NCBI GenBank assembly: GCA_964552045.1
Contig: CAZKFF010000001.1
Span: 64,120 to 128,119, forward strand
DNA from: an uncultured Candidatus Saccharibacteria bacterium
GTDB taxonomy: Bacteria; Patescibacteriota; Minisyncoccia; Phycocordibacterales; UBA918
Direction of reading: 5' to 3'
Length of the DNA stretch: 64,000 bases
Positions 62 through 54,500 of the stretch are shown here, piece after piece (the first letter of the stretch is position 1; every line of letters begins with the position of its first letter). The translations under genes and the position numbers were made by a program. Under the pieces are notes generated by a model. It saw only the letters and a list, made by a program, of their open reading frames with translations. It was not told the origin of the DNA and did no database searches.

Positions 62-493
62 TTAAAATAATTCTTTATATTTATTTAAAAAGAATGGGAA
101 TTGGGAATGCTGCGGATGCGGGATCTCATCAATGGCACACCAGCGCTGTTCTGTACATTTCCCCGGCTCGGTAATAGCAACTTCACTGGGATCAATGCGC
201 GCTTTAAAATCAAACGCTATCCAGTGCGATTTCTTTCCCTGTATCTCTCGGAACACCTCCCGGAAGCCTATAAGTTCGATCGCATACGCTGAAGCGCCGC
301 ACTCTTCTTTGATCTCCCGTCTTACCGCATCTTCAAGGGATTCATGCGGTTCAACACTTCCTCCTCCAGCGGGTTCCCAGCAACCCTGTTCATCTTTGCA
401 TAAAGGCCCGCGCTGCGAGATGAGATATTTTCCTTCCCCATTGTGGCACATAGTTATGACCGATACACCAGTGTAGTCGAAGCCTTTCTGCAT
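62..493 (-). CDS. NUDIX hydrolase
   Basis: 143-aa ORF with a Nudix box GGGSVEPHESLEDAVRREIKEECG (GX5EX7REUXEEXGU). ATG at 491-493. Confidence 0.8.
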   Translation of the reverse strand: MQKGFDYTGVSVITMCHNGEGKYLISQRGPLCKDEQGCWEPAGGGSVEPHESLEDAVRREIKEECGASAYAIELIGFREVFREIQGKKSHWIAFDFKARIDPSEVAITEPGKCTEQRWCAIDEIPHPQHSQFPFFLNKYKELF

Positions 494-509
494 GAATGTA
501 TACTAACAC

Positions 510-531
510 AAAACCCGCGCAGGCGGGTTTT
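510..531 (-). terminator. hairpin terminator after the rpsP-KH operon
   Basis: Perfect 9-bp stem aaaacccgc/gcgggtttt with a 4-nt loop. U-rich tail on the minus-strand RNA. Sits about 30 nt after the KH-protein stop. Confidence 0.5.
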
Positions 532-560
532 GTACCAGATTGAAAACTGGAAATTCCAAT

Positions 561-923
561 TTATATCTTAAGGTCGTCAATTGCCTGGTCGAGTGACTTC
601 GGCTCTGCAGCCATATCACTGGCTCCGCCCATATCTGTTCCCTGATCCTGTGAAAGCGCACTGCGCGGTCCGGTGCCGCCTTCCGGCTCATTGATCTTGA
701 GGTTCACGCGTGCTTCGTTCTTCATTCCCACTACGCGGAGCAATGTGCGGATCGCTTTGGCAGTATTGCCTGAGCGTCCGATGATCTTTCCCATATCCTC
801 TGCATGGACATCAAGCGTCAACAGAACGCCCATTTCGTCTACCGTGCGGGTAATGTGTACGCTGTCCGGATGGTCTACGAGTGCCTTGACTACTGTCTCT
901 AGAAATTGCTGATCTTCTTGCAT
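561..923 (-). CDS. KH-domain RNA-binding protein (YlqC/UPF0109-like), downstream of rpsP
   Basis: 120 aa with a KH-like core (GKIIGRSGNTAKAIRTL). The rpsP-KH gene order is conserved in bacteria. Confidence 0.7.
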   Translation of the reverse strand: MQEDQQFLETVVKALVDHPDSVHITRTVDEMGVLLTLDVHAEDMGKIIGRSGNTAKAIRTLLRVVGMKNEARVNLKINEPEGGTGPRSALSQDQGTDMGGASDMAAEPKSLDQAIDDLKI

Positions 924-1072
924 AGTACGTTTGTATTGAGAACTTTATGACTGATAAGCGTCCGTCACTTCTCTTTCAGTAACGTTGCCACAAACAATAG
1001 TACAAAGAATTATATATGTACGTCAACAGCGCCCGGTGCAATGCACCGGGCGCTGTTGATAAAATAATGGCT

Positions 1073-1489
1073 TTACGCAGCAGTCTCTTCCGTTTTCTCC
1101 TCTGTTGTTGCCTCATCAGGAGTTTCCGCCGTATCGGGAGTCTCCGCTTGTGCTGCAGCCGCCTCAGCTGCTGCCTTTTCCTCCTCCGCCTTCTTCAGAG
1201 CCTCCTCGTCAACAATCGGAGACTTGCGCGGCAGAGGGTTGATCTTCTTGCCATCAATCACCTTCTTGCTTACGAGCATATTGTGGAGCGTTACCGATGG
1301 TTGCACTCCCTGTGAGAGCCAGTGCTTCGCTTTCTCCTCATTGATCTGGAACGTACCTTGCTTCGGGCTGAACGAACCAAGAAGATCCACGTGCTTATTG
1401 CTTTTTGGACCTGTTCGCTTGTCAGTGACCACAATACGATATGAAGGATCGTTTTTGCGGCCGACTCGTTGTAATCGCATCATTAACAT
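1073..1489 (-). CDS. rpsP: 30S ribosomal protein S16 with Ala/Glu-rich C-terminal extension
   Basis: MLMMRLQRVGRKNDPSYRIVVTD matches the S16 N-terminus. Start chosen at the ATG at 1487-1489; the ORF track extends to 1528. Confidence 0.85.
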   Translation of the reverse strand: MLMMRLQRVGRKNDPSYRIVVTDKRTGPKSNKHVDLLGSFSPKQGTFQINEEKAKHWLSQGVQPSVTLHNMLVSKKVIDGKKINPLPRKSPIVDEEALKKAEEEKAAAEAAAAQAETPDTAETPDEATTEEKTEETAA

Positions 1490-1781
1490 AAGTGGCTGAA
1501 ACTGTATCAAAACTGCACAAAAAGTCAAATGAGCAAAGGCCAGTATGGACTATTGCGAATTTGTGCCCCGTCTTTTTTACAAGGAGAGTAAATCGCTGGG
1601 CCAAGGAACTGAGGGCGTCTGCGACATATTCTGCGACATATGTTATGTGTGTCAGAATTTACGCTTTCCGAGAGCCAATATTGACCAAAGAAATAGCAGT
1701 GCCATTGTGGAACACACTGCCCTCTTCACGAATACGGTATACTAAATAATACTCATACGTGCTAGACTCCTTCCACTTTGT

Positions 1782-3737
1782 ATGACACAGCAACAAACAT
1801 ATCAGGGGCCGATCATGGTACGGGCAAAAGGTACCGGCTTTTTGACTGTAGAGGGACTGCCTGAGGACGTCCTCATTCCGCCCGAATCACTCTCCTTCGC
1901 TCTGGATGGAGACATTGTCGAGGTCGCATTGGTTAAAAAAGTGCCCGGCAAACGACAGGAAGGCCGTGTGGTCCGTGTGGTTGAGCCGGCACATGAAGAA
2001 CTCATTGGCACAGTAAAGAAAGAAAAGGATGCCCCTAGGTTCTATCTGTCCCCCGATAACTACCGTATCCATGTCAAACCGCAGCTGCGCGAGGCAAGCA
2101 GTAACGACGAAGGCATGAAGGTGGCGGCCAAGATAATCAAATGGACCGATCCGCTGAAGGATCCCATCGCTGAGATAACTGAGACGCTTGGAAAAGCGGG
2201 TGACCATGAAACAGAAATGCAGGCCATCATCCGCTCAGGCGGATTTTCCGAGAGCTTCAATGAGGCTATACAACAGGCTGGACAGGAGCTCTATGCAAAA
2301 AAAGAAGAGATATTCAGGGAAGCTGTTGAAGCGAGCAAGGGACCACAGCCTTTTCGCCGCGATATGCGAGACCGGACAACAATGACCATTGATCCGGTGG
2401 ACGCAAAGGACTTCGACGATGCGCTCTCCTTCCATGTGCTTCAAAACGGGAATTACGAGGTGGGCATTCACATAGCCGATGTGTCGCATTATGTCCACGA
2501 GGGGGATGTCATCGACAAAGAAGCTCAGGAGCGCGGAACGTCGATTTATCTGGTAGACCGGGTCATCCCTATGCTTCCTGAGGTGCTGTCCAATGATCTC
2601 TGCTCACTGCGGCCCGATGAAGACCGCCTCGCATTCTCTGCAGTCTTTGAAATGGATGCAGACGCCCACATTGTCAGTGAATGGTACGGACAGACCATCA
2701 TCCATTCAAATAAACGGTTCAGCTATGAGGAAGCACAAGGGGTGCTCGATGCCCAGGATGGCCCCTTCCTTGCGGAGCTCTCTACCCTGATGGCCCTTGG
2801 GCGTATTCTGCGCAAAAGGCGCTACCAGGAAGGTGCTATAGCCTTTGATCAGCCGGAAGTAAAATTCAAGCTCGATGAGCACGGTAAACCGATCGCCGTT
2901 GTTGCAAAGGTGCGCACCGAAACCATGCTCATGATCGAAGATTTCATGCTGCTGTGCAATCAGCGTGTTTCAGAACATATCTATACGCTCTGTAAAGACA
3001 AGGGCCGCGATGCGGCATTCATTTACCGCATCCACGATGTACCGAACCCCGATAAGATCGAGGAGCTCTCGCTGTTCATCCATGCGCTCGGCTACGAATT
3101 CGAAACAAAACAAGGAGAGGTGCATGCAAAAGAGATCAACCGGCTTCTGAAGGACATCGAAGGTAAGCCTGAAGAGAATCTCATCAAGACAGCCACTATC
3201 CGCTCGATGGCAAAGGCTGTCTATTCAACGAAGAACATCGGACATTTTGGACTTGCATTCAAATACTATACCCACTTCACCTCTCCTATTCGCCGCTATC
3301 CCGACCTGATGGCACACCGGATGCTGCGGCGACACCTCGATGGATCGCAGATCGGCAAGCAGGAGATGCTCCGGTATGAAAAGCTCGCGATCAAGTCTTC
3401 AAAGCGGGAAATCGAGGCAGTGAAGGCAGAGCGCGATTCGATCAAGTTCAAGCAGGTTGAATACATGCTCGACAAGGTCGGACAGGAGTTCGACGGCGTA
3501 GTTACTGGCGTCACTGACTGGGGTATTTATGTCGAGGAAAAAGAATCCAAAGCAGAAGGTATGGTTCGCCTGGGTAGCCTCCGCAGCGACTATTTCGTCA
3601 TAGACCCGGGCAAATACCGCATCAAAGGAGAGAGGACGGGACAGACCTACTCACTCGGACAGGAAGTGCGCATCAAGCTGGTACGGGCAGACTTGGAAGA
3701 ACGACAGCTCGATTTCGAACTCATCGCTCGTGCTTGA
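1782..3737 (+). CDS. rnr: ribonuclease R (RNB family 3'-5' exoribonuclease)
   Basis: 651 aa. N-terminal cold-shock/OB region. RNB catalytic motif TMTIDPVDAKDFDDALS. C-terminal S1 domain. Ends at TGA 3735-3737. Confidence 0.85.
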   Translation: MTQQQTYQGPIMVRAKGTGFLTVEGLPEDVLIPPESLSFALDGDIVEVALVKKVPGKRQEGRVVRVVEPAHEELIGTVKKEKDAPRFYLSPDNYRIHVKPQLREASSNDEGMKVAAKIIKWTDPLKDPIAEITETLGKAGDHETEMQAIIRSGGFSESFNEAIQQAGQELYAKKEEIFREAVEASKGPQPFRRDMRDRTTMTIDPVDAKDFDDALSFHVLQNGNYEVGIHIADVSHYVHEGDVIDKEAQERGTSIYLVDRVIPMLPEVLSNDLCSLRPDEDRLAFSAVFEMDADAHIVSEWYGQTIIHSNKRFSYEEAQGVLDAQDGPFLAELSTLMALGRILRKRRYQEGAIAFDQPEVKFKLDEHGKPIAVVAKVRTETMLMIEDFMLLCNQRVSEHIYTLCKDKGRDAAFIYRIHDVPNPDKIEELSLFIHALGYEFETKQGEVHAKEINRLLKDIEGKPEENLIKTATIRSMAKAVYSTKNIGHFGLAFKYYTHFTSPIRRYPDLMAHRMLRRHLDGSQIGKQEMLRYEKLAIKSSKREIEAVKAERDSIKFKQVEYMLDKVGQEFDGVVTGVTDWGIYVEEKESKAEGMVRLGSLRSDYFVIDPGKYRIKGERTGQTYSLGQEVRIKLVRADLEERQLDFELIARA

Positions 3738-4051
3738 TAGACAACTTCTTAAAGCTGTTGCGCACTACAGATATCTCAAGCTCATCTGTAAGGAACGGCC
3801 ATTTGCTGCGTCACAATAAGTATATGGGTACTACCGGGCACAACGTAACATATTCACTTCCTCTCTATCTGAAGAATATGGCAGTGCTCTGTTTAATGCG
3901 CACGAAGTGGACAACGCGTGCGCTTTGTTCTAGCCGAGATTCCGTTTCTCTCCGGTAATCCCCTCTCAGAAAATGAAACCTCGGCTGGATCAAAGTCGAG
4001 GTATTTTGTACGAAAACCAGCAGCGGCTCTTTCACAGAGGGAGTATATGTC

Positions 4052-4300
4052 ATGCTCATCGACACTGTTTGCCCGGGTGCGAGCGATGCCGAAATGGACT
4101 TCACCGTCCACTTCGTCACCCATGGGAAATTCAAACTCGGGGAGTTTCTTGAGCTGGTGAACGAACGGTATCCGCTGATCGTCACCGAAAAAAGCAGGAG
4201 CGGAGTGACCACGGTCGCTATCCGCATGCGGCATTCGCACCTGCGCCTGCTCATTGCGATACTGCCCAAGTACGTGGGCGTCTCGTATGAACCTGCGTGA
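4052..4300 (+). CDS. small hypothetical protein (82 aa)
   Basis: GAGGGAG RBS-like sequence about 9 nt before the ATG. A perfect terminator hairpin follows directly after the stop. No recognisable domain. Confidence 0.4.
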   Translation: MLIDTVCPGASDAEMDFTVHFVTHGKFKLGEFLELVNERYPLIVTEKSRSGVTTVAIRMRHSHLRLLIAILPKYVGVSYEPA

Positions 4301-4335
4301 GCCTGCAAAACATCCGTATGTTTTGCAGGCTCTTC
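4301..4335. terminator. bidirectional intrinsic terminator hairpin
   Basis: gcctgcaaaaca-tccgta-tgttttgcaggc gives a perfect 12-bp stem, followed by tcttctttattt. Lies between the converging small ORF (+) and smc (-). Confidence 0.65.
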
Positions 4336-4336
4336 T

Positions 4337-6613
4337 TTATTTGGCGACAGTGACCGCCTCCTCAAACTTTACCGACAGCAGTTTCGAGACCCCGTCGCCA
4401 CCCATAGTAACGCCGTAGAGTATGCCGGCGCGACTCATGGTCTCGCGGTTGTGCGTAATGAGGATAAGCTGCGACTTCTCCGCAAGCGCCTCGATCATGT
4501 CGCCGTAGCGCCGCGAATTTGCCTCATCAAGTGCCGCATCGGTCTCATCAAGAATGATGAACAGAGGGGGGTTGACCTGGCTCATGGCGAAAATAAGCGC
4601 GATGGAAGTAAGTGCCCGCTCCCCTCCGGAAAGCATATCCAAGCCCCGCACGCGCTTGTTGGGAAGTTTGACGTCAAGCTCGATCCCTTCCTGTACCAGC
4701 TCATCCTCTTCCCCCGCTGCTGGAGCCGTTTCTTCCTCACCTTCTTCAAGTTCATCGTTCTGTTTGCGGATCTTCGGCTTCACACGGAGGAGTTTTGCCT
4801 CACCGCCCCCGAACATCAGCGCGAAGAACCGGTTGAACTCAGCTCCGATCTTTTCAATGCCGGCGACAAACTCGCTATTGAGCGAAGCAGTGAGTTCCGC
4901 GATGAGTTCCTCGAGCTTTGTGATGGAGGCTTCCAGATCGGCTATTTCCCGAACCAGGAATTCATCACGGCCTTTCACTTCCTTGTATTCCTTCTCGACA
5001 TCCTGATCAACGCCGCCAAGCTCTTCAAGGCGTATCTTGAGCTTCTCAAGCTCATGCCGGCGATCCTTCTGCACCTGCCGATCTTCGCTGACTATCTCTT
5101 TGGTACCGACCGGCTTCCCATCCTTCTCTATCTCAAGAGTGAAATATTTTGATGCGCCGCTGCCGATCAGTGCCACCGCCTCCTGCAGTTCCCGTTTGAA
5201 TTCATTGCGGTCACGTTCAAGCGCACCCAATTCTGCATCAATGCGGGAGATGAGATTTTCGCATTCGCGCTGCTCTCCGATGATACGGAACACTTCCCGC
5301 TCGGCATCCCGGCTCTCCGATTGCTCTGCCTCAATGGACCGCCGTATCTCTTCATATGCGGAGGTCAGTTCTGACTCCTCTTTCTCAATATGGACTATGC
5401 GGCTTTCGCATTCCTGTTGTTCCACCTCCAGATCCTGAAGCTCCTTTTCCTCATCCTTGGTGCTCCCGGCAGCAGACCCGGACGCATGCTGCAGCAGTTT
5501 CCGCAACATATGCACCATATCGGCAAACGACCGACGCAGAAAATGGAGGTCTTCACTTGCTGCCGCCTTCTGTGCGGCCACCTCGATCGCATCGAGTACT
5601 TTTTTGAATTCACTGCCCGGAACGGGAGCAACCTCTTCCTGCGCATGTTTCTCTTTCATCTGGGTAATGCGGCGCTTCAGGAAGAGCACCTGTCCCTCCA
5701 CCGTCCCGCTCTTGCGCAACAGTTCCTGGCGCTTCTTGCGCACAGCCGATATCTTTTCTTCAAGGTCCATCAGCGTCTTGCTCTTCTCGTCATTCTCGCT
5801 TGCAGCGAGCACTGACTTTGCTTTGCCCAGTTCCTGGGTAAGCGCGTGGAGCTTCTGCGTCGGCTCATCCTTCTGTGCGGTAAGCCTGTCGTGATGGAAT
5901 GCTATATACGTGTCCTCACGTTTGAGATATTCCGCATACACTGCCGTCAACTCCTGCCGCAGCTGCAAGGCACGCTCTATCTTCTTCAATTGCCGCTCCA
6001 AAAACTGCAGATGTGGCGCGACCTCGCGGCGCAGCGACTGCACCCGCCCAACGTTTTCACGGGTTTTCTCCAGTTTCCTTTCTGCCTCGTTCTTCTTGTA
6101 TTGATATACCTTCAGCCCCAAAGCATCCTCGATCATTTCTCTGCGCTCCTGGTTTGAAGCTGAAAGGATGCGGTCCGCCTCACCCTGGGAAATGATATGG
6201 TGGCCTGTTGAACCAATATTTGCTGCAGCGAGCAGCTCCTGAACGTCTTTCAGGCGGACCTTCGAGCTATTGATTGCATACTCATTGGTACCGTCGCGGT
6301 TGACCGTACGTTCAATGAGGATCTCATCGAAATCCATCTGGAACACTCTTTGTGTGTTGTCGAGGACCACACTGACCTGCGCACGGTTGCCGCGTGAGAC
6401 GCTGTCCGAGCCGTTGAATATGAGGTCCTCACCTCTCTTGCCGCGCATCGATTTTATGGATTGCTCACCCAATACAAAGCGAAACGCTTCAGCGACATTT
6501 GACTTGCCAGAACCATTTGGACCCACGATCGCAGTTATGGGCGCACTGAATTCAAGCTCGCTCTTCTTAGCAAATGATTTGAAACCACTGATTGTGAGGT
6601 GTTTAAGATACAT
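4337..6613 (-). CDS. smc: chromosome segregation protein SMC (short form, 758 aa)
   Basis: N-terminal Walker A FKSF...GPNGSGKSN. Long coiled-coil middle. C-terminal signature LSGGERALTSIALIFA and Walker B LFIILDETDAALD. Confidence 0.85.
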   Translation of the reverse strand: MYLKHLTISGFKSFAKKSELEFSAPITAIVGPNGSGKSNVAEAFRFVLGEQSIKSMRGKRGEDLIFNGSDSVSRGNRAQVSVVLDNTQRVFQMDFDEILIERTVNRDGTNEYAINSSKVRLKDVQELLAAANIGSTGHHIISQGEADRILSASNQERREMIEDALGLKVYQYKKNEAERKLEKTRENVGRVQSLRREVAPHLQFLERQLKKIERALQLRQELTAVYAEYLKREDTYIAFHHDRLTAQKDEPTQKLHALTQELGKAKSVLAASENDEKSKTLMDLEEKISAVRKKRQELLRKSGTVEGQVLFLKRRITQMKEKHAQEEVAPVPGSEFKKVLDAIEVAAQKAAASEDLHFLRRSFADMVHMLRKLLQHASGSAAGSTKDEEKELQDLEVEQQECESRIVHIEKEESELTSAYEEIRRSIEAEQSESRDAEREVFRIIGEQRECENLISRIDAELGALERDRNEFKRELQEAVALIGSGASKYFTLEIEKDGKPVGTKEIVSEDRQVQKDRRHELEKLKIRLEELGGVDQDVEKEYKEVKGRDEFLVREIADLEASITKLEELIAELTASLNSEFVAGIEKIGAEFNRFFALMFGGGEAKLLRVKPKIRKQNDELEEGEEETAPAAGEEDELVQEGIELDVKLPNKRVRGLDMLSGGERALTSIALIFAMSQVNPPLFIILDETDAALDEANSRRYGDMIEALAEKSQLILITHNRETMSRAGILYGVTMGGDGVSKLLSVKFEEAVTVAK

Positions 6614-6633
6614 TGCAGCTGGTCCGCTCCACC

Positions 6634-7497
6634 TTAATTGACAAAGATGATATACGCATCGTCAAGGTCGATCTCATCATTGATCCAATTGTATGCTCCC
6701 TGCGTGTAATAGGAACTCTGGGTGTAGTAAGACGTCTGGGTGTAGTAGGATGTCTGCGCATAATAATTTCCCTGGATGTAGTACGAGGTCTGCGCATAAT
6801 ATGAAGTCTGCGTGTAGTACGAGGTCTGCATATAGTACGAAGACTGCATGTAGTATGAACTCTGTACATAGTACGAACCCTGGGCATAGTACCCGGATTG
6901 TGAGTAGTACCCGCTTTGGCTGTAGTAGCCTGATTGCGAGTAGTACCCACTTTGGCTGTAGTACCCGCTCTGACCATAGTAGCCGCTCTGCCGATAGTAT
7001 CCTGACTGTGAGTAATACCCGCTCTGGCCGTAACCCGCATACGCAACCGGCAGGAACGAATCGTCTTCAAGGTTAAGCTCTTCTTCCCCGCATACATCGG
7101 TGTAGTTCCCGTTCCCTTCAGACTCCATGTTCTGGACAATGATGACATCCCTGGTTTCGCCATTGCATTCAAAATCAGAGAAATACCAATATCCGTAGTT
7201 GCTTTTATCTCCGAGTGGGTCTTTGTTTATTTCAGGCAAGAACGGAGCAAGTTCGTCATCGATCGCCTCCCCTACGCCTATCTCTACCCCGTCGCTGAAT
7301 TCAGGGTATTCACCGTTCGCTTCTTTGTAGAGGCGAACCCCGAGCTTGAGCTGTTCAAGGTCATTCACCCGCGCTGTATCACGCGCTTCTTTCCGTGCGT
7401 TGCTGAAAACAGTGAAGGCAAGCACTGCCAGAGTAATGATGATGCCGACAACAGTCATCACTTCAACAAGTGTAAAACCTGTTCTTCTCATTAGCAC
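6634..7497 (-). CDS. type IV pilin-like protein with C-terminal Tyr-rich pentapeptide repeat
   Basis: N-terminal class III (prepilin) signal RRTGFTLVEVMTVVGIIITLAVLAF. Conserved pilin-like core shared with the neighbouring gene. About 23 tandem copies of S-G/S/T-YY-x-Q. Confidence 0.75.
   Translation of the reverse strand: MLMRRTGFTLVEVMTVVGIIITLAVLAFTVFSNARKEARDTARVNDLEQLKLGVRLYKEANGEYPEFSDGVEIGVGEAIDDELAPFLPEINKDPLGDKSNYGYWYFSDFECNGETRDVIIVQNMESEGNGNYTDVCGEEELNLEDDSFLPVAYAGYGQSGYYSQSGYYRQSGYYGQSGYYSQSGYYSQSGYYSQSGYYSQSGYYAQGSYYVQSSYYMQSSYYMQTSYYTQTSYYAQTSYYIQGNYYAQTSYYTQTSYYTQSSYYTQGAYNWINDEIDLDDAYIIFVN
6690..7045 (-). repeat. 15-nt periodic coding repeat encoding (S-x-Y-Y-x-Q)n
   Basis: Visible 15-bp periodicity gtagta...ctg..., with synonymous and near-synonymous variation between units. 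Confidence 0.8.
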
Positions 7498-7543
7498 AAT
7501 AATATCATCCGTAGAGCACTAAAAAAGAGCGACCGGGGGAATA

Positions 7544-8032
7544 TCAGTCCTTCAGTACGATAATGTACGACCCTGACCCTGCCACGGTCGCATCGGGACT
7601 TGCATCTGTACAAACAGTTGCAAAGTTCGCGTTCTTTGAAAGTTCCATGTTGCGGGCAAAAATGACATGCTGGCCGGATTCAGAACAGGTGAAATCAGAA
7701 TCGTACCAGTAGCTGTATTGGGTGCCCTCCGCTGCCCGCTTCGGATCACTGTAGATATTGCCGTTGAAAAGCCGGATATCGTCATCGAGATCACCGCCCA
7801 TCCCGATTTCAACCCCATTATCGAACGATGGGTAATCCCTGTATTTCTCCTTATAGAGCGTGAGGGCGAACTGGATATTGGTCAGATCAGAGACACGTTT
7901 TTCTTCGCGCGTTTTCTGCCGTGCCTGGGACATCGAGGCAAGCACGATGGTGAGTATGATCATGATGAGAGCGATCACAACCGCAAGTTCAACAAGTGTG
8001 AACCCGTCTTTTGTCTTCGCAATCTGTCGCAT
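7544..8032 (-). CDS. type IV pilin-like / pseudopilin protein
   Basis: 162 aa. N-terminal KDGFTLVELAVVIALIMIILTIV (G|FTLVE prepilin cleavage/methylation motif). Core paralogous to the 6634..7497 gene (YP-FxxGVEIG-G...YWY-SDF-C). Confidence 0.75.
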   Translation of the reverse strand: MRQIAKTKDGFTLVELAVVIALIMIILTIVLASMSQARQKTREEKRVSDLTNIQFALTLYKEKYRDYPSFDNGVEIGMGGDLDDDIRLFNGNIYSDPKRAAEGTQYSYWYDSDFTCSESGQHVIFARNMELSKNANFATVCTDASPDATVAGSGSYIIVLKD

Positions 8033-8098
8033 GCCTTAATCCTATCATGCACTTACTGTGCAAAACTGAGATAGCCACCAGGCCCAAGGCTGCATAAT

Positions 8099-8821
8099 TT
8101 ACCAGCCTTTCTGCTCGATCGCTTTCAGCGCTGCTTCCTGTTCAGCCTCCTGTTTCGCCCGTCCCTTCCCTTCGCCTACCTTTTCTTTCCCGAGAAAAAC
8201 GCCAACAGTGAATACGCGGTCATGGTCTGGTCCTTCCTGGCTGAGCGTAGCATAGGTCGGCGTCAGGTTTGTGTGTTCCTGCGCCAGCTCCTGAAACCTG
8301 CTTTTTGGATCTTGCCACAGGCGCTTCTCCACTATCTCATCAGTTTTGCTGAACAACTGATCAGCGATGAATTTCTGGGCGATGCCGTACCCCTGATCCA
8401 CGTACAAAGCTCCAATGAATGCTTCGAATGCATTTGCCAGAATATACTGCCGTGCTCTTCCAACATCCTTTGATTCGCCTTTGGACATCAGGAGATAATC
8501 ATTGACGCCGAGCTTCGTCGAGGCATTGGAAAGCGAGACCGTATTGACAAGCGCCGACCTGATGGCGGTAAGCTCGCCTTCCGGCTTATCTGGATACTTG
8601 CGGAACAGGAAATCCGTCACCACAAGCTCCAACACTGCATCCCCAAGGAATTCGAGCCGTTCGTTGTGGTCTTGCTTAGCATCGCGGTGCTCATTGAGAT
8701 ACGAACGGTGTGTTATGGCGGTCAACAGGTGCATTTTGTCATTGAACACAAAACCGAGCACGCGTTCAAGTGCGAGCAGGTCAGCTTCAATGTTCCGTTC
8801 ATCGCTTTCTTTTTGAGCCAT
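8099..8821 (-). CDS. rnc: ribonuclease III
   Basis: RNase III signature ERLEFLGDAVLELVVTDFLF. C-terminal dsRBD with a KAKQEAEQEAALKAIE-like tail. Confidence 0.9.
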   Translation of the reverse strand: MAQKESDERNIEADLLALERVLGFVFNDKMHLLTAITHRSYLNEHRDAKQDHNERLEFLGDAVLELVVTDFLFRKYPDKPEGELTAIRSALVNTVSLSNASTKLGVNDYLLMSKGESKDVGRARQYILANAFEAFIGALYVDQGYGIAQKFIADQLFSKTDEIVEKRLWQDPKSRFQELAQEHTNLTPTYATLSQEGPDHDRVFTVGVFLGKEKVGEGKGRAKQEAEQEAALKAIEQKGW

Positions 8822-8862
8822 AGTTCTGTGTAGCTCAACGCTACCACGTTTTAAAAAATGCG

Positions 8863-9768
8863 CTACTTCCTGCTATTGTTTGCAACAAGCATCGTCACCG
8901 CCTTGGTCACAATGGGCAGAATGTCCTCATAGAAATTGAGATCGAGTATCTCGGCAACCTTGAACCATTTCGCGTCATCAAGGCCACCTTTATTCTCCAA
9001 AGTAAGCTCAGTATATCCGCTTCGGGCGAGGAAATACGTGACCTGCTTCCGCACTTTGCCGAGTTCTGGGTGCGATGCCACGTATTCATTCTTGCCAAGT
9101 TCACCTTCGAGGATAACATCGACGCCGATCTCTTCTTTGATCTCACGCATGGCGCCGGCCTCGACTGTTTCACCCTCCTCGATCTTCCCCTTTGAGAGAG
9201 TCCAGTGTCCGAAGATATCGTGAACCAGAGCCAGATAGATGTCACCATCAGACTCCGAATACACCACAGCACCCGACAGACGTTGTATCGGCATCTTTTC
9301 AAAAGGAATATCCTTCCGCGGCCGTTTGCCCGTCTCATCCTTCCCCGGCTCGCCTATCTCCTTATACACTGCACCGAGCACGCCGTTGACGAACCGGCTG
9401 CTGTTCTCGCCGCCGAACTGTTTTGCAAGTTCTATTGCTTCGTTGATGGCGACCTTCGCAGGCACCTCTTTCCGGTCAGCAAAAAGAAGCTCGTAGAGTC
9501 CCAAGCGCAATATATTTCTATCTACCGGTGAAATACGGTCAATGGGCCACTCGGGAGCAGCCTTTTCGATCACCTGGTCGAGTTCCGGCTGCTTGCCAAG
9601 TACGCCGTCAAGAAGCTTCTCAATAAACGGTGCGTCGGTCTTGTTCGGGGCAAACTCGGATATGTTGCGTTCCAAAACGTCTGCTACGCCCTTCTTTTCA
9701 ATATCATTTAAATCCCACTCAAAAAGTGTCTGAAGAACGATAGACCTGCTTAAATGTCGATTTGCCAT
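8863..9768 (-). CDS. nusB: NusB antitermination factor fused to a C-terminal NUDIX hydrolase domain
   Basis: N-terminal about 140 aa are NusB-like (ends ...RFVNGVLGAVYKE). The C-terminal half carries the Nudix box GKIEEGETVEAGAMREIKEEIGV. Confidence 0.8.
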   Translation of the reverse strand: MANRHLSRSIVLQTLFEWDLNDIEKKGVADVLERNISEFAPNKTDAPFIEKLLDGVLGKQPELDQVIEKAAPEWPIDRISPVDRNILRLGLYELLFADRKEVPAKVAINEAIELAKQFGGENSSRFVNGVLGAVYKEIGEPGKDETGKRPRKDIPFEKMPIQRLSGAVVYSESDGDIYLALVHDIFGHWTLSKGKIEEGETVEAGAMREIKEEIGVDVILEGELGKNEYVASHPELGKVRKQVTYFLARSGYTELTLENKGGLDDAKWFKVAEILDLNFYEDILPIVTKAVTMLVANNSRK

Positions 9769-9819
9769 AAAAAATGTACTAACTTCTACTGAGACCAGTG
9801 TACAACACCCCTCTCAAAC

Positions 9820-9846
9820 AAAAAACCGGCGGGGGCCGGAATTTTG
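9820..9846 (-). terminator. GC hairpin + U-tract after rpmF
   Basis: aaaaaccggc-gggg-gccgg-attttg. Stem ccggc/gccgg. U-run on the minus-strand RNA immediately after the L32 stop. Confidence 0.4.
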
Positions 9847-9855
9847 TGGATTAGG

Positions 9856-10143
9856 TTATTTCGTTTCCTGTGCAGCCGGTTCTTGCGAGACAGTTTCCGC
9901 GTCTGAAGAGCTCTGCGCCCTGATCGCCTCGCGTTTTGCCTGCATCCGTGCATCACGCTTTTCCTTTTGCGCCTTCAGGTCCATTACCTGTCGTCCTTTG
10001 TAAAAGCCGCATTCCAGGCACATGTGATGAGGACGGTGCTGGGCACCGCAGTTTGAACACACAGCCAAAGTAGGGTTCTTCAGCGCATGGTGTGATCGGC
10101 GGTTGCTTGTATGCGCCCGCGTATGTCGCATTCGTATTACCAT
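9856..10143 (-). CDS. rpmF: 50S ribosomal protein L32 with C-terminal basic/acidic extension
   Basis: [53 protein letters not shown]. Zn-ribbon CxxC...CxxC typical of L32. ATG at 10141-10143. Confidence 0.75.
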
Positions 10144-10234
10144 AGTGGGCGCAACTATAGCAGACAAAGGCTTTTTTGGCAATAAGAAAGGGCGCCAAGC
10201 GTCGGCGCCCCCTGCTTGATGCACAATCGGGAAG

Positions 10235-10525
10235 CTATTTCCCGTGGAATTGCTGCTCGCGCAACTCCGGAAGATTGGACGTGAGCGCAAGTTTCCGGTA
10301 TACACCCAGATCTTCTTGACTGCACGACATCACGAGACAAGCCGCCGCAATGCCGTGGTTCTCACAGTATTGGGCAAGTTGTTCCCGGCTCTCCTCCTTG
10401 ATGGTGTTTGTGCCATCACTTTTTGCTTGTGACAAGACTGTACCTCTTCGATTCTGTAGAAAATTGAAACGCTCTTTTGCGTTCCTCCCACACCCCCTGA
10501 TGTGGCTTCCCATACTGTACCACAC
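10235..10525 (-). CDS. hypothetical protein (96 aa) between rnhB and rpmF
   Basis: Protein-like composition in an operon position. No recognisable motif. Might correspond to the YceD/DUF177 slot upstream of rpmF, but it is much shorter than that family. Confidence 0.3.
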
Positions 10526-10527
10526 AT

Positions 10528-11139
10528 TCAGCTCCCTATCAATTTCTGACAGTAACTTTTTCTGTGCACGTCAGAAACCCCGAGGGTAAGGATGAGCTTC
10601 CGATGATGCGCGGTGCCGTAGCCCTTATGCTGCTCGAAGCAATACGGAGCATATGCGGCACGAGCGGACAATCGGGACATGTGTCGGTCACGGGTCACTT
10701 TGGCGGCGATCGAAGCGAGGCCGATCACTTTCTCCTGTGCGTCGCCGCCGATGATGGTTTCCTGGTACAAAAACTCTTCCGGGGCTCGAAGCGAGCCATC
10801 GAGCTTCACCTGGCAAAATGCTTCCTCAAAGTGAAGCTCGCTTTTGAGTTTATGGAGCGCGATCCGCATCGCTTTGCGGACAGACGGGACGATGCCGATA
10901 GCATCAATGGAAGCCGCGCTGACCATCGCCACGGCAAACGCAAGTTTCCGTTCCTGCTGCAGTACGCACGCCTGTCTAAAAATCTCTTCTCGCTTCTGAG
11001 GCGTAAGTTTTTTTGAATCATCAACGCCCGGGATATGGCTCCAATTGAAGTCCGGAGAGACACAGACCACGCCGACAGCAACCGGGCCCGCTAATGGGCC
11101 GCGCCCAGCCTCGTCTATGCCAATGAGCCATTTTTGCAT
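10528..11139 (-). CDS. rnhB: ribonuclease HII
   Basis: IGIDEAGRGPLAGPVAVGVV catalytic N-terminal motif. ATG at 11137-11139; the ORF track extends further upstream. Confidence 0.85.
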   Translation of the reverse strand: MQKWLIGIDEAGRGPLAGPVAVGVVCVSPDFNWSHIPGVDDSKKLTPQKREEIFRQACVLQQERKLAFAVAMVSAASIDAIGIVPSVRKAMRIALHKLKSELHFEEAFCQVKLDGSLRAPEEFLYQETIIGGDAQEKVIGLASIAAKVTRDRHMSRLSARAAYAPYCFEQHKGYGTAHHRKLILTLGVSDVHRKSYCQKLIGS

Positions 11140-11170
11140 GTAGATAACTATACCAAGGATTTTTGATATA

Positions 11171-14100
11171 ATGGCCATATTCATGTCCCCCAAGCCCATC
11201 GAGTCCGAATTCGTCCATCTGCACGTGCATTCGCACTATTCCCTTCTTAATGCGATCCCGACTCCCAAAGAGCTCGCACAGGCGGCAAAGGAAGACGACC
11301 AGCAGGCACTTGCATTGACCGACGCCGGAGCGCTGTATGGCATCATCGACTTCTATAAAGCGTGTGCCAAAGAGGAGATCAGGCCTATCATTGGTCTTGA
11401 TGCGTTCCTCGCACCGCGGACACGCTTTGATAAGGAGCCGCTCGACAAACCGCGCGCTCGTCTGGTTTTGCTCGCAGAGAACGACGCAGGCTACAAGAAC
11501 CTCATCAAACTGGTCACGCTCTCGAACATTGAAGGCTTCTACTACCGCCCCCGTCTGGACCGCGAACTGCTGCAAACATATGCAAACGGGCTGTTCTGTC
11601 TGATCCCTTCATTCGCCGGAGAGACGTCTCAGCACTTGAAGAACAACGATCTCGAAAAAGCACAGGCCGATGCGGATTGGTACAAGAGTGTCTTCGGCGA
11701 TCACTGCTATCTTGAGATCACGCACCACCCCGAGATGCTCGAACATCAGGAACTGCAGGAGAAAATACGTGGGTTGAGCGAACGGTCCCGTATTCCGCTT
11801 GTTGCAGCGCACGATGTCTATTACCTCAACAAAGACGACGCCACCGCGCGTGAGGTGATGATCAAGATCCAGAACGGCGGCAGTGTTGACCCGCACGAAG
11901 AGCGCAGCGAGGATTTCTCGTTCATCACGCAGACGCAGGCAAAAGAATATTTCACAGACGTCCCCGAAGCGCTGCAGAATACCGTACGTATTGCAGAACA
12001 GTGTTTTGTCGATATCCCGATCGGTACAAAGTGGTACTTTCCCAACTACATCATTGAGAGCGGCAAAAAAGCAGACGAGGAGCTTCGTGAACGTGCATAC
12101 AAAGGAGTCGCCTGGCGCGGACATGACATCAATGACCCCGCCATCAAGGAGCGCCTCGACTACGAACTTGAGGTCATCAAGAACAAAGGCTATGCGAAGT
12201 ACTTTTTGACTGTAAGCGACCTGCTGCGTGAGGCGCGCGAACGAAAGATCCTCACCACCATTCGCGGATCAGTTGCCGGTTCGTATGCCACGTACGTGCT
12301 CGGCATCACGAACGTAGATCCACTTGAATATAAGCTCCCCTTTGAGCGTTTCTTGAACCCTGAGCGTCCTTCAGCGCCTGACGTCGATATGGACTACGCC
12401 GATAATCGGCGCGATGAGATCATCGAATACGCGAAGCAGAAGTACGGCGAAGATAAAGTGGCCCAGATCGGCACGTTCGGAACAATGATGGCTCGCGCGG
12501 CAGTGCGCGATGTTGCGCGCGCATTGGGCCATCCCTATTCGGTTGGCGACCGCATCGCAAAGCTCATTCCAATGGGAAGCCAGGGATTCCCGATGACGAT
12601 CAAACGCGCTCTGGAGATCGAACCGGAACTGAAAAAACTCTACAAGGCAGACAGCGAATCCCGCGATGTGCTTGACCTCGCACAGAAGATCGAAGGGCGC
12701 GCACGGCACGTGGGCGTGCATGCAGCTGGTGTGGTGATTGCACCCGAGCCATTGGACCAGTTTGTTCCTATACAACTCGATACCAAAACCGGCAAATACA
12801 TCACACAATATGAGATGCGCTCTGTCGGCGAAGACGGGGTCGGTCTCCTTAAGTTCGACTTCCTTGGCATCAAGAATCTCTCCATTCTGGCTGACGCCGT
12901 CAAACGCGTGAAGGCTATCCGCAATATTGATGTCGATATCGAAGACATCCCGCTTGATGATCCGAAGACGTTCAAGATGCTCGCCGCCGGGGAGACGATG
13001 GGGCTGTTCCAGCTCAACGGCTCAGGCATGACTGCATTCCTCAAGCAACTGCAGCCGTCATCGATTCATGACATCAACGCTATGGTCGCCCTGTATCGTC
13101 CGGGCCCGATGGAATCGATCCCGCAGTATATTGAGCGCAAGCACAACGCGAACCTCATCACCTATCTTGACCCGCGCCTGCAGAAGATACTCGACCGTTC
13201 GTACGGGGTGATCACCTATCAGGATGACGTCATGATGATCTCGATCGAGCTCGCCGGTTATTCATGGCTCGACGCCGACAAGCTCCGCAAAGCCATGGGG
13301 AAGAAGATTCCCGAGGTGATGGAGGCGGAAAAGGAGAAACTCATGAAAGGTTTTCTCGAATACGGGAAGCTCTCTCCTTCTGTTGCTGACAAGCTCTGGA
13401 GGCTCATCGAGCCATTTGCCGCGTATGGATTCAACAAAGCACATGCGGCCAGCTACGGACGGGTTGCATACCAGACCGCGTACATGAAAGCGAACTATCC
13501 CGAGGAGTATATGTCTGCGGTACTCACTGCCGACTCCGGAGATACGGAGAAGATCGCCGAGATCATCCACGAATGCGAACGCATGGGTATTGAGGTGCTG
13601 CCGCCGGATATCAACGAGAGCTTTGCAGCTTTCTCTGTGATACCCAACACGCAAAAGATACGCTTCGGCCTGACGACCATCAAGAATTTTGGCGCCGGAA
13701 TCGCAGAAGCGATCATTTCGGAACGCAAAGAGAATGGACCATTTGCTTCCCTCTCTGACTTCCTGACGCGCGTCCATGACAAAAATCTCAACAAGAAATC
13801 ACTTGAGGCGCTCATTATGGCGGGAGCATTCGACCGCTTTGAGGTGCGCGGCAAGATGTATGAGAACCTCGACACGCTCCTTGCGTTCAATAAGGAGCAC
13901 GTTGCCGGAAAGGAAGCAAACCAGGATTCGCTCTTCGGCGGACTTACCACCGCCATCAATATGCTTGTGCTTGCTGATGCTCCTGATGTGTCGCTTGAAC
14001 AGAAACTTTTGTGGGAAAAGGAGCTTTTGGGCGTGTATGTCTCCGGGCATCCGCTTGATCGGTTCAAAGAAGAGCTTTCCAAACGCTCGACCATACAGCA

Positions 14101-51599: not shown

Positions 51600-54500
51600 C
51601 TATATTTCGCCGCCGCCGCCGCCACCGCCGCCGCCTGCCTGGGTATACGGCTTTACCTGAATGGCATCGACCTTGACCGTATTCTGATCCGGCTGGTCAA
51701 TGACACGGACGAAGAAGTTGCCGCCTGAGAGGTCACTTGGACTCCAGCTGCGGCCCCAGGTATCGGACGCACCGCCGAGCGTATAGACTGCGTCGCTTCC
51801 CGTGAGCACGGATGTTGCCTTTGTCGCCGTCACACTTTCGTCGCCATTCCAGGAAAGTGCCACCTGAATCGTTCCCGCCCCGGTTGAACCGGACGCTTCA
51901 AGCTTCACTTCGATACCGGTCACCGTATTCCCTGCCGGCACATTGAAGCCGAAGACACTGTACGACTGACGAAGGTCCGCCGATGCAGCCGTTGCGTAGA
52001 CGTCGTCGGAGGTAAGCGCATTGCTGCCGTTTGTCCACTCATTGTAGAGTTCTCCGGTTGCGGTCGGCGCTTTGAAGCCGGGTTCGTTGCCAATCTGCTC
52101 TCCATTATCCTCTTCCCCTACTCCGCCGCCGCCGTTGTTGCCGCCGCCGCCGATGTCACCATCACCTTCTGGTGCATCGTCTCCCACTTCAGCGCTGAAG
52201 AGACTGCCGCCGCCCTTATTGCCGCCGCGGATATGCTGCACTGAGGTCACACCTCCGAGCGGGACAACAACTCCTTCAGTCGTCGCGCCCGTGCCGGTAA
52301 CACCGTTACGATTGAGGTCAATGGTCAGATACTCATTGGTATGTACGCCCGTGACATCTCCCGTAAGGACATAGTCTTTGGTCGTCGTTGCATCCCATGA
52401 TGTTGAGAATGTTATTGTCCCTGATTGTCCCGTGATGGCTAACACGCCAGTGCCGCCGATCTGGTTGTCAGAAGCGTCTGCCGTACCGTTGCTGTTATTG
52501 TCGCGGTAGAGCTTAAAGTCCCCAATATTACTGCTATCGATACGATGGATGCCGGAGAGTGTAAATACAGCTGACGTGATCGTTGCATTCTCTCCAACAG
52601 GTGCAAGATTAAAGGCAAACAATGGTTCGTCGCTCTTGTTCTGGTAGCTGAATGCATTGTCGATCTGACCAGCGGTGTGATCTGCAAGGTTTGCTGCACC
52701 ATAGATAGCCACAGTCTTATCATCATGAACGCCAGTAGCTGCCACAGGATCAAGTGTATAAGCGTTGATATCGTCACCCGTATAACCCATCACATAGAGC
52801 GTGGTACCGTCGTTGTTGAAGAGTGCCGCAGCAGGAGCAGATTCCTGTGCGGCGACCGAGAACGCGATCTCGTCGAAGGTCGCCGTTGAGATGTCGTACG
52901 GAGTGGAGAGCGTATAGGCATTGATGTCTTGTCCTGTTAAGCCCACAACATACAATACAGTACCGGTGTTGTTGAAGAATATATCAGAGGGGGCGTTTTC
53001 TTCTGAAAGGACCGAGAACGCGATCTCGTCGAAGGTCGCCGTTGAGATGTCGTACGGAGTGGAGAGCGTATAGGCATTGATCTCCCCACCAGATGCTTGC
53101 ACAACATACAGGACGGTACCGGTGTTGTTGAATTCCATATCATAGGGGAAGGATCCCTCTGCCGAAACCGAGAACGCGATCTCGTCGAAGGTCGCCGTTG
53201 AGATGTCATACGGAGTGGAGAGCGTATAGGTATTGATGTCGAGACCAGAAGTACCCATCACATAAAGAACGGTGCCGGTGTTATTGAAGAGCATTGAACG
53301 GGGGTTGATTTCCTGTGCGGCGACCGAGAGAGCGATCTCGTCGAAGGTGGCAGTTGAGATGTCATACGGAGTGGAGAGCGTATAGGCATTGATGTCATCA
53401 CCGGTAGAACCCATCACATAGAGCGTGGTACCGTTGTTGTTGAAGAGCATTGCACGAGGAGCGTCTTCTTGTGAAGAGACAGAAAGGGAGATTCCATTGA
53501 AGATGGCAGTTGAGACATCGTATGAACCTGACTCTTGATCAACAACAAACGACAGCGTCGATGTTGGCGCAGCAAGTGCGTTAAATTGTGTAAATGAAAG
53601 CCCCGAAATAGTGAGGGTATCCCCTCCTGAGAAGTCATTCGAGACGGGTACGACGAGTGTGGCACCGCTGTCCTCATACGAAACAGGATTAGAGACTTTG
53701 CCTGAGGCGGTTCCTCCAAAGACTGCAGTGGTATCGGTCGTATCCCACTTCATATTTGTCTTTGTAGTGTCAATGGTAATACGAAGGTCATTCGCTGCCG
53801 TAATCGTCGGGGTCTCGGCGTCGGTTATGGTAATGGCGGCAATAGACGTGGTCGCCTGGCCGTATCCAAAGATCTGGTTCGATGCTGAGGAAATCGTCCC
53901 CGCCCCGCCTCCACCTGCTGGCGCTGTGATGTCCCAGCAGTCGTTATTGCCGCTGTCGGTCGAGCTGGCTGCAGTGATGGTGCTTGCGCTGTCGCATGCG
54001 TTTGAGTCCATCACATCGACATACGTAACGGATATCTGGGTATCTGCATCGAGGCCCCACTGGGTTCCGTCCTGTGTTGAACGGAGTACGATCTCGTCAT
54101 TCTCTGCGCCGTCTATCTGTATAGAGGCGAAGGTTGAGGTCGCATCCGCAGGGAATTCCAGAGTAATACCGGGAGTGATCGCTACCAATTTTGCAGCCTC
54201 TACCGGATCAGTGAAGGTGGTGACCGGAACTCCGCCAGTATTGCCGGGCGAAGTCATCACGAGATCGGTACCAGATTGCGCTACCGCAACAAACGTACCG
54301 TTGCCGTAGGTCACTGACCGCCAAGAACTCGCTGCTCCTTCTTGTCGAGCAGTCCACGTGATTCCGTCAGGCGAGGTCATCACTTGATCAGTGCCACCGA
54401 GAGATACCGCAACAAACAGGCCGTTGCCGTAGGAAACGGAATGCCAGAAGGAAGCTTCTGTCGCCGAATGCGAGGTCCACGTGATGCCGTCCTCTGAGCT

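Follow-up and report, generated by a model that had tools for sequence, protein, structure and literature searches.

The DNA analysed here is a 64,000-nt stretch of contig CAZKFF010000001.1 (assembly GCA_964552045.1, deposited as an uncultured Candidatus Saccharibacteria bacterium), hereafter referred to as the window. Its minus strand carries a gene, nusB::nudix, that encodes in one frame a NusB transcription antitermination domain, a charged linker and a Nudix-fold domain (Table 1). The open reading frame (ORF) is complete, and no internal stops or frameshifts interrupt its 301 codons. A first-pass annotation, which gave no strand, had proposed an in-frame fusion of two complete domains with an intact catalytic box, and the analysis bears this out on each point. 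Both domains are found well above their gathering scores: Pfam NusB (PF01029) matches residues 7–136 (E = 9.4e-38, model positions 3–133 of 133, 130 bits with a cut-off of 23.1) and Pfam NUDIX (PF00293) matches residues 167–281 (E = 6.9e-16, 58.9 bits against a gathering threshold of 21.1). The NCBIfam model for nusB (TIGR01951) is also passed, with 134.9 bits against a cut-off of 88.35 over model positions 2–130 of 131, and the solved NusB proteins of Thermotoga maritima, Aquifex aeolicus and Escherichia coli align end to end with the NusB half. The Nudix box of the window copy (G194–V216, GKIEEGETVEAGAMREIKEEIGV) is an exact match to the consensus GX5EX7REUXEEXGU, with all glutamates present.

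We modelled the window protein with AlphaFold2 (AF2) from a 73-sequence alignment, obtaining a mean predicted local distance difference test score (pLDDT) of 88. Seven NusB helices span residues 4–138, mostly with pLDDT above 85, residues 141–150 are predicted to be disordered (pLDDT ~40), and an alpha/beta/alpha Nudix fold occupies residues 161–300. In Foldseek comparisons the NusB part matched Aquifex NusB (3r2d_B) with a TM-score (TMt) of 0.87 and a root-mean-square deviation (rmsd) of 1.8 Å. By score, fold and alignment, including the invariant F126/G129 core, this half is a full-length NusB; other conserved residues in the alignments are R4, R8, F16 and N128–G132, and binding of S10 and boxA by the window protein is putative. 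Whereas canonical NusB, which partners S10 on boxA in the rRNA and lambda-N antitermination complexes, is a stand-alone protein of ~130–150 aa, the window protein adds 160 residues of C-terminal linker and Nudix domain. Residue N122 (nt ~9403–9405) of the window protein is the counterpart of E. coli NusB residue 118, which is changed from Asp to Asn in the gain-of-function allele nusB101 (D118N). T. maritima NusB has Asn there too, and the best-scoring E. coli PDB sequence for the NusB half is the NusB101 mutant entry 3imq.

We searched 5.8 billion proteins and examined the 120 best clusters (81–95% identity; JGI, ENA, NCBI and Logan data). All 120 are ~300 aa long and contain both Pfam domains. 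When one genome was scanned for each species, at least 541 genomes proved to encode a relative, and the best 80 loci (65–98% identity) were kept. The junction between the domains is crossed by one unbroken frame in 78 of these 80. One of the remaining two ends at a contig end, and the other is frameshifted within the NusB part, away from the junction (L073:4001–4899, near residue 50, seen as two high-scoring segment pairs in different frames). The protein of one locus (L001) is 98% identical to the window protein over its whole length. At greater distance, a HMMER search of 1.84 billion cluster representatives recovered ~60 further full-length fusions (50%-identity clusters), down to 33% identity to the window protein. 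We conclude that the fusion is real and of ancient origin. Among deep relatives outside the close clade, the linker differs in both length and sequence. An apparently conserved linker motif of the deep relatives (RKDIPFE) was discarded as an artefact of gap-column counting.

Most labels among the best 80 loci are Patescibacteria-group names (Kaiserbacteria, Nomurabacteria, Paceibacteria/Parcubacteria and many bins named “uncultured Candidatus Saccharibacteria”), and a few are clearly foreign. Two loci (L002 and L012) and many Saccharibacteria-labelled ones (e.g., L009, L016 and L019) have a gene that is 77–85% identical, with the same synteny as in loci labelled Kaiserbacteria or Paceibacteria. 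The Acidimicrobiales-, Azotimanducaceae- and Saccharibacteria-labelled bins that contain the fusion are probably taxonomic mislabels or cases of bin contamination in public records. We found no paper describing a NusB-Nudix fusion in 8 million literature full texts, where NusB together with Nudix, Patescibacteria or the Candidate Phyla Radiation (CPR) returned irrelevant co-mentions, and a review of the Nudix clan (PMC5389931) does not mention NusB. The first-pass annotation knew of no description of the fusion, which agrees with this literature search; as an architecture, however, it is not rare, being present in hundreds of public Patescibacteria genomes. Public databases annotate these proteins simply as “NusB”.

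The gene order on the minus strand is rnhB, rpmF, nusB::nudix, rnc. Across the best 80 loci, rnc lies directly downstream in 78, rnhB is present in 73 and rpmF is upstream in 70, and the same order is found in relatives merely 37–41% identical. The closest unfused NusB proteins, which are 44–55% identical to the NusB half, have their gene at this same site, nusB being directly followed by rnc. The synteny and the unfused nusB at the same site indicate that the fused gene is the nusB orthologue, with a gained C-terminal domain, and not a paralogue; no second NusB was found in the window.

We found no arrangement of unfused nusB, nudix and rnc as three genes among the relatives examined. Two apparently stand-alone Nudix relatives (P0215 and P0238) were considered as an unfused ancestral state and rejected: the locus of one, L081, is a contig-end fragment, and that of the other, L082, is a fused frame with one stop. 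This single in-frame stop (L082:542–1459; GCA_013565675.1, JACCDV010735530.1) falls exactly at the codon of the conserved Tyr135 (“GAV*KELGEP”), as a result of which gene callers split the frame into a NusB of 133 aa and a Nudix protein of 141 aa. The stop could be a sequencing error, a pseudogene lesion or a natural split.

A promoter and terminator scan detected no clear promoter before nusB, giving hints at the level of consensus only. Upstream of rpmF there is a promoter-like site (TTGCCA-17-TATAGT with TG). The L32 protein of the window has a Lys/Glu/Ala-rich C-terminal extension of ~35 residues, and its mechanically called ORF runs upstream to a GTG at position 10305.

Table 1. Features of the window in and around nusB::nudix.
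Feature	Position	Strand	Basis or remarks
nusB::nudix ORF, complete	8863..9768	minus	301 codons, ATG start, TAG stop, one frame
NusB domain, residues 1–138, all-helical	9355..9768	minus	Pfam, TIGR01951, AF2, Foldseek, PDB alignments
Inter-domain linker, residues 139–160, charged, predicted disordered	9289..9354	minus	pLDDT; variability in deep relatives
Nudix-fold domain, residues 161–301, ApnA-hydrolase-like	8866..9288	minus	Pfam, Foldseek, sequence alignments
Nudix box, G194–V216, canonical in window copy	9121..9189	minus	GKIEEGETVEAGAMREIKEEIGV; motif match; E209 varies in relatives
rnc (RNase III)	8099..8821	minus	Pfam Ribonucleas_3_3, Ribonuclease_3, dsrm; 41 nt downstream of nusB::nudix
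Terminator-like GC hairpin and T-run between rpmF and nusB::nudix	9826..9839	minus	CCGGCCCCCGCCGG then TTTTTTGTTT; consensus match only
rpmF (L32 with C-terminal extension), upstream neighbour	9856..10143	minus	Pfam Ribosomal_L32p; start codon approximate
Promoter-like site upstream of rpmF	10182–10154		
Stand-alone Nudix gene	62..493	minus	143 aa; PF00293, E = 8.7e-16; box GGGSVEPHESLEDAVRREIKEECGA
KhpA KH-domain protein	561–923	minus	
S16	1073–1528	minus	
RNase R/II	1782–3737	plus	
SMC_N/AAA-type ATPase	4337–6613	minus	758 aa
Giant ORF	51600–62690	minus	3696 aa

The box that is canonical in the window copy is frequently not so in its relatives. We scored seven box residues (G194, E200, R208, E209, E212, E213 and G215), and the full set is canonical in 88 of the 120 near clusters; at species level it is so in 21 of 69 loci, and among the deep representatives in 8 of 55. 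The canonical box pattern as a whole is matched by ~10 of 61 deep full-length representatives. The “RE” glutamate, E209, is replaced in most relatives. Even in clusters 81–91% identical to the query it is replaced (RG, RC, RA, RS or RK), and across the relatives the replacements are A, S, K, G, C, I or V. At the level of the species clade, residue 209 is Glu in 31, Ala in 28, Ser in 7 and Lys in 7. On a rough neighbour-joining tree of the 65–98% identity clade it has undergone ~18 changes from an inferred root state of Glu, where the median Nudix site has 5; with rank 26 in variability among the 115 Nudix sites, it belongs to the most variable quarter. In alignments, E209 is the counterpart of E46 in Ndx1, and we take it to be the equivalent of E53 in MutT and RppH; this glutamate is essential to metal-dependent catalysis in canonical Nudix enzymes. 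In the species-loci alignment, G194S goes with E209A (a “SKSKV...RAL” subgroup) and K195G with E209K (“KGGI...RKI”). These linked states may be lineage-specific alternative forms of the box or simply reflect shared ancestry.

Outside the box, the domain is well conserved. Ratios of nonsynonymous to synonymous substitution rates (dN/dS) are ~0.06 for NusB and ~0.12 for Nudix (pairwise and rough values, with dS saturated in 70–94% of pairs by region), and both halves are under purifying selection. The identity of the non-box Nudix residues relative to NusB identity is about equal in the two box classes, with 0.96 in members with an intact box and 0.89 in those with a degenerate one. Nine residues are invariant in both box classes among the species loci (D184, F186, W189, T190, K193, Y229, Y245, W268 and Y280). 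An extreme case is P0184, in which the box is fully degenerate and the Pfam NUDIX match is absent; its AF2 model (pLDDT 92.9) nonetheless comprises NusB and the same Nudix fold, with a Foldseek match to 3i7u at TMt 0.85. Overall, the canonical catalytic glutamate has been repeatedly replaced and is dispensable across the family, and the domain is not decaying.

In its fold, the Nudix domain resembles hydrolases of diadenosine polyphosphates (ApnA). The top Foldseek match in the PDB is the diadenosine tetraphosphate (Ap4A) hydrolase aq_158 of Aquifex (3i7u; TMt 0.90, rmsd 1.9 Å), followed by Mycobacterium tuberculosis Rv2985 (9cxx) and M. smegmatis MutT1, the Ap6A hydrolase Ndx1 of Thermus thermophilus (1vc8) and Chlamydia CT771 (4mpo). 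The Ap4A hydrolases of Caenorhabditis elegans (1ktg) and human (NUDT2, 3u53) are also among the top matches, and NrtR appears among the fold hits. The sequence search agrees with these fold matches and shows a W-x-x-[P/S]-K-G motif before the box that the window protein has in common with the ApnA hydrolases, together with Y229, Y245 and W268. Identity to the best structural matches is 22–31%, with TMt of 0.85–0.90 and rmsd of 1.9–2.4 Å for 3i7u and 1vc8. The ApnA hydrolases differ in being free enzymes, or fused to a histidine phosphatase in MutT1, whereas here the domain is fused to NusB, the RE glutamate is mostly lost and no curated model is passed. Judging from the predicted model, the domain is nearest in fold to the ApnA hydrolases, and at this level of identity membership in any specific family is not claimable.

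Curated enzyme models gave scores far below their cut-offs. For the RppH/YtkD models (NF001936, NF001938 and TIGR02705), scores were 29.7 against 118 and 20.2 against 116 bits, with only the box region aligned, and rescanning the Nudix domain by itself raised RppH no higher than 31.2 against 118 bits. The model for the nicotinamide adenine dinucleotide (NAD(+)) diphosphatase NudC (NF001299) reached 29.4 of 158 bits; the N-terminal and zinc-binding extra domains typical of NudC are absent from the Pfam and AF2 results, in which the protein consists of NusB, linker and a minimal Nudix domain. For the 8-oxo-(d)GTP phosphatase MutT1 (NF052459) the score was 42.3 against 475 bits, with only profile positions 4–115 of 292 aligned, and other curated enzyme models (MutT, NudI, etc.) were likewise not passed. 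Because the best fold matches are ApnA hydrolases and the scores of the NudC and RppH models lie far under their cut-offs, an Ap4A-like ligand appears to be a better guess than NAD-capped RNA.

Several known proteins offer partial parallels. A precedent for a NusB-fold RNA-binding domain joined to an enzyme that acts on rRNA is RsmB/Sun, in which an N-terminal NusB-like domain is fused to a 16S rRNA 5-methylcytidine (m5C) methyltransferase, and RsmB models do match the NusB part of the window protein. However, the NusB-like domain of RsmB is a paralogue and not an antitermination factor, and the window protein scores 62.1 against 319 bits with the RsmB model, over the N-terminal domain only, and has no methyltransferase match in Pfam. 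Nudix folds with a degenerate box inside a larger machine are found in CF Im25, TRPM2 NUDT9-H and NrtR. CF Im25 binds ATP and Ap4A within the mRNA 3'-processing complex and does not hydrolyse them (PMC2425470), and NUDT9-H combines ligand binding with an inactive box (PMC4974056). None of the three has a specific sequence relationship to the fusion family, in which degeneracy is partial and lineage-dependent and the window copy is canonical. A functional analogy is provided by SuhB, an accessory subunit with an enzyme fold (inositol monophosphatase) that is required for incorporating NusB/E into the antitermination complex for rRNA transcription (rrnTAC) of E. coli (PMC6614801). SuhB is, however, of unrelated fold and a separate polypeptide, and any contact of the Nudix domain with NusA, RNA polymerase or leader RNA is hypothetical.

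The surroundings of nusB::nudix (positions 62–11199) are dense in RNA-metabolism genes, in the order stand-alone Nudix, KhpA, S16, RNase R/II, RNase III, NusB::Nudix, L32 and RNase HII; in a distant relative (L084), a KhpA homologue lies just downstream of rnc. The first-pass annotation had also pointed to the second, stand-alone Nudix gene at 62..493. This gene is real and has a canonical box as well; its similarity to the fused domain is weak (phmmer E = 5e-4). Among other genes in the window, the SMC_N/AAA-type ATPase is much shorter than canonical SMC and is kept downstream of rnc in most related loci. The giant ORF, with matches of the beta-propeller type (EPTP, DUF6242 and lactonase 7-bladed propeller), probably encodes a large surface or adhesion protein.

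We consider it moderately probable, on the strength of the conservation patterns, that the role kept by selection in the Nudix module is non-catalytic binding or scaffolding and not hydrolysis, because E209 has been lost repeatedly while the domain stays conserved. A recognised non-enzymatic class exists within the Nudix clan (PMC5389931). We propose that the nusB gene of a large Patescibacteria clade (mostly Parcubacteria- or Kaiserbacteria-labelled) would have gained a C-terminal Nudix fold of the ApnA-hydrolase type via a flexible linker. The NusB half would bind boxA RNA with S10 within the rRNA antitermination complex, and the tethered Nudix fold would serve to bind or scaffold one of three candidates: a nucleotide or dinucleoside polyphosphate, the nascent leader at its 5'-phosphorylated end, or a partner protein. 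In copies with a full box, such as that of the window, hydrolysis may persist as an accessory activity, possibly as a pyrophosphohydrolase acting on ApnA-type substrates, 5'-triphosphates or nucleoside tetraphosphate (Np4) caps. The fusion product would then act on a leader RNA that is later cleaved by RNase III, the product of the neighbouring rnc. In rrn operons the promoter is closely followed by boxA, and there is overlap between boxC and the RNase III site (PMC10250234); thus, the 5' end, NusB and RNase III would meet on the same leader RNA.

A narrower form of this proposal, to which we assign a rather low probability, is that the Nudix fold could be an integral subunit, with a largely non-catalytic function, of an rRNA antitermination/processing complex specific to Patescibacteria. 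It can be put in two ways. The Nudix domain might sense an Ap4A-type alarmone, or the 5'-triphosphate or Np4 end of the leader, and so gate the loading of NusB and S10 on boxA. Alternatively, in these reduced genomes the fold might take the structural place of an accessory factor, for example SuhB.

Several observations weigh against a binding or scaffold role. The geometry between the domains is not confident in the AF2 models, with a predicted TM-score (pTM) of 0.58 for the window protein and 0.69 for P0184, and an Rfam scan of the window found one tRNA, with no rRNA operon or boxA within the 64 kb. Within the box, E213 has undergone no change in the 65–98% identity clade, and R208 and E200 one each (on the same rough tree). 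This constancy could mean that selection still acts on metal or phosphate chemistry, with altered or reduced catalysis in the variants lacking E209. A modified box is compatible with activity in some genuine Nudix enzymes, GDP-mannose mannosyl hydrolase being one example. Moreover, active enzymes may well exist in the fusion family, since the box is perfect in the window copy and in ~30% of the species-level relatives.

These last points bear directly on the alternative that the protein is an active bifunctional enzyme, in which NusB docks on boxA and the tethered Nudix domain strips the leader's 5' end of pyrophosphate or of a cap (Np4A-type or possibly NAD), coupling antitermination to 5'-end processing or decay. 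We regard this as possible for the window copy, though less than an even prospect. Besides the canonical box of the window copy, the near-invariance of E213, R208 and E200 and the ancestral Glu at residue 209 in the close clade, it draws support from the best structural neighbours, which are real ApnA hydrolases, and from the ability of Nudix enzymes, including RppH, to remove Np4 caps and 5' pyrophosphate (PMC7044304, PMC8833179). Furthermore, with boxA just past the promoter (PMC10250234), a linker of ~20–30 residues could plausibly reach the 5' end. Most relatives, however, lack E209, and many deep ones lack several box residues, yet the domain is kept; therefore, hydrolysis could not be the conserved function of the family. 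The low scores with the RppH, YtkD and NudC models and the lack of a NudC-type extra domain likewise speak against this alternative. The suggestion in the first-pass annotation that the fusion couples antitermination to hydrolysis of NAD-capped RNA or Ap4A can thus be kept only in part: an Ap4A-type substrate fits better than NAD-RNA, whereas hydrolysis is not conserved across the family, in which the RE glutamate is mostly replaced.

We think it improbable that the two halves are functionally uncoupled, i.e., that a house-cleaning Nudix gene for ApnA or nucleoside triphosphates (NTPs) lying between nusB and rnc was fused to its neighbour and either keeps a separate job or is slowly decaying. 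Fusions of neighbouring genes are common in reduced genomes, and the long, variable and disordered linker, like the low confidence in domain orientation, would be compatible with such an origin. On the other hand, the unfused three-gene arrangement that it presupposes was not found among the relatives examined, and the fusion is retained, in constant synteny, across relatives of 33–98% identity. Nor would the dN/dS of ~0.12 and the invariant non-box residues be expected in a decaying domain, and a house-cleaning enzyme should not repeatedly lose its catalytic Glu yet stay conserved.

Finally, an artefact, whether through an overlooked stop, a frameshift or the chimeric joining of two genes in assembly, is effectively excluded despite the lesions in two public loci (L082 and L073), given that 78 of the best 80 loci and the 120 best clusters, which come from four data sources, show the same continuous frame, that L001 is 98% identical over its full length, and that purifying selection continues in frame through the linker.

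For the annotation of these proteins, the repeated box loss is a reason for caution, as the label of hydrolase is not justified by the domain match alone. The repeated loss of a single glutamate also provides a natural series of active-looking and inactive-looking variants, which makes the question of activity versus binding directly testable. If the narrower proposal of a subunit specific to the Patescibacteria complex is correct, the fused domain would represent a type of accessory module new among Nus factors, and an enzyme caught in the course of turning into a pseudoenzyme. More broadly, the lineage-wide presence of a nucleotide-binding fold on NusB, a core and usually stand-alone factor, suggests that the antitermination/processing complex of Patescibacteria differs from that of model bacteria.

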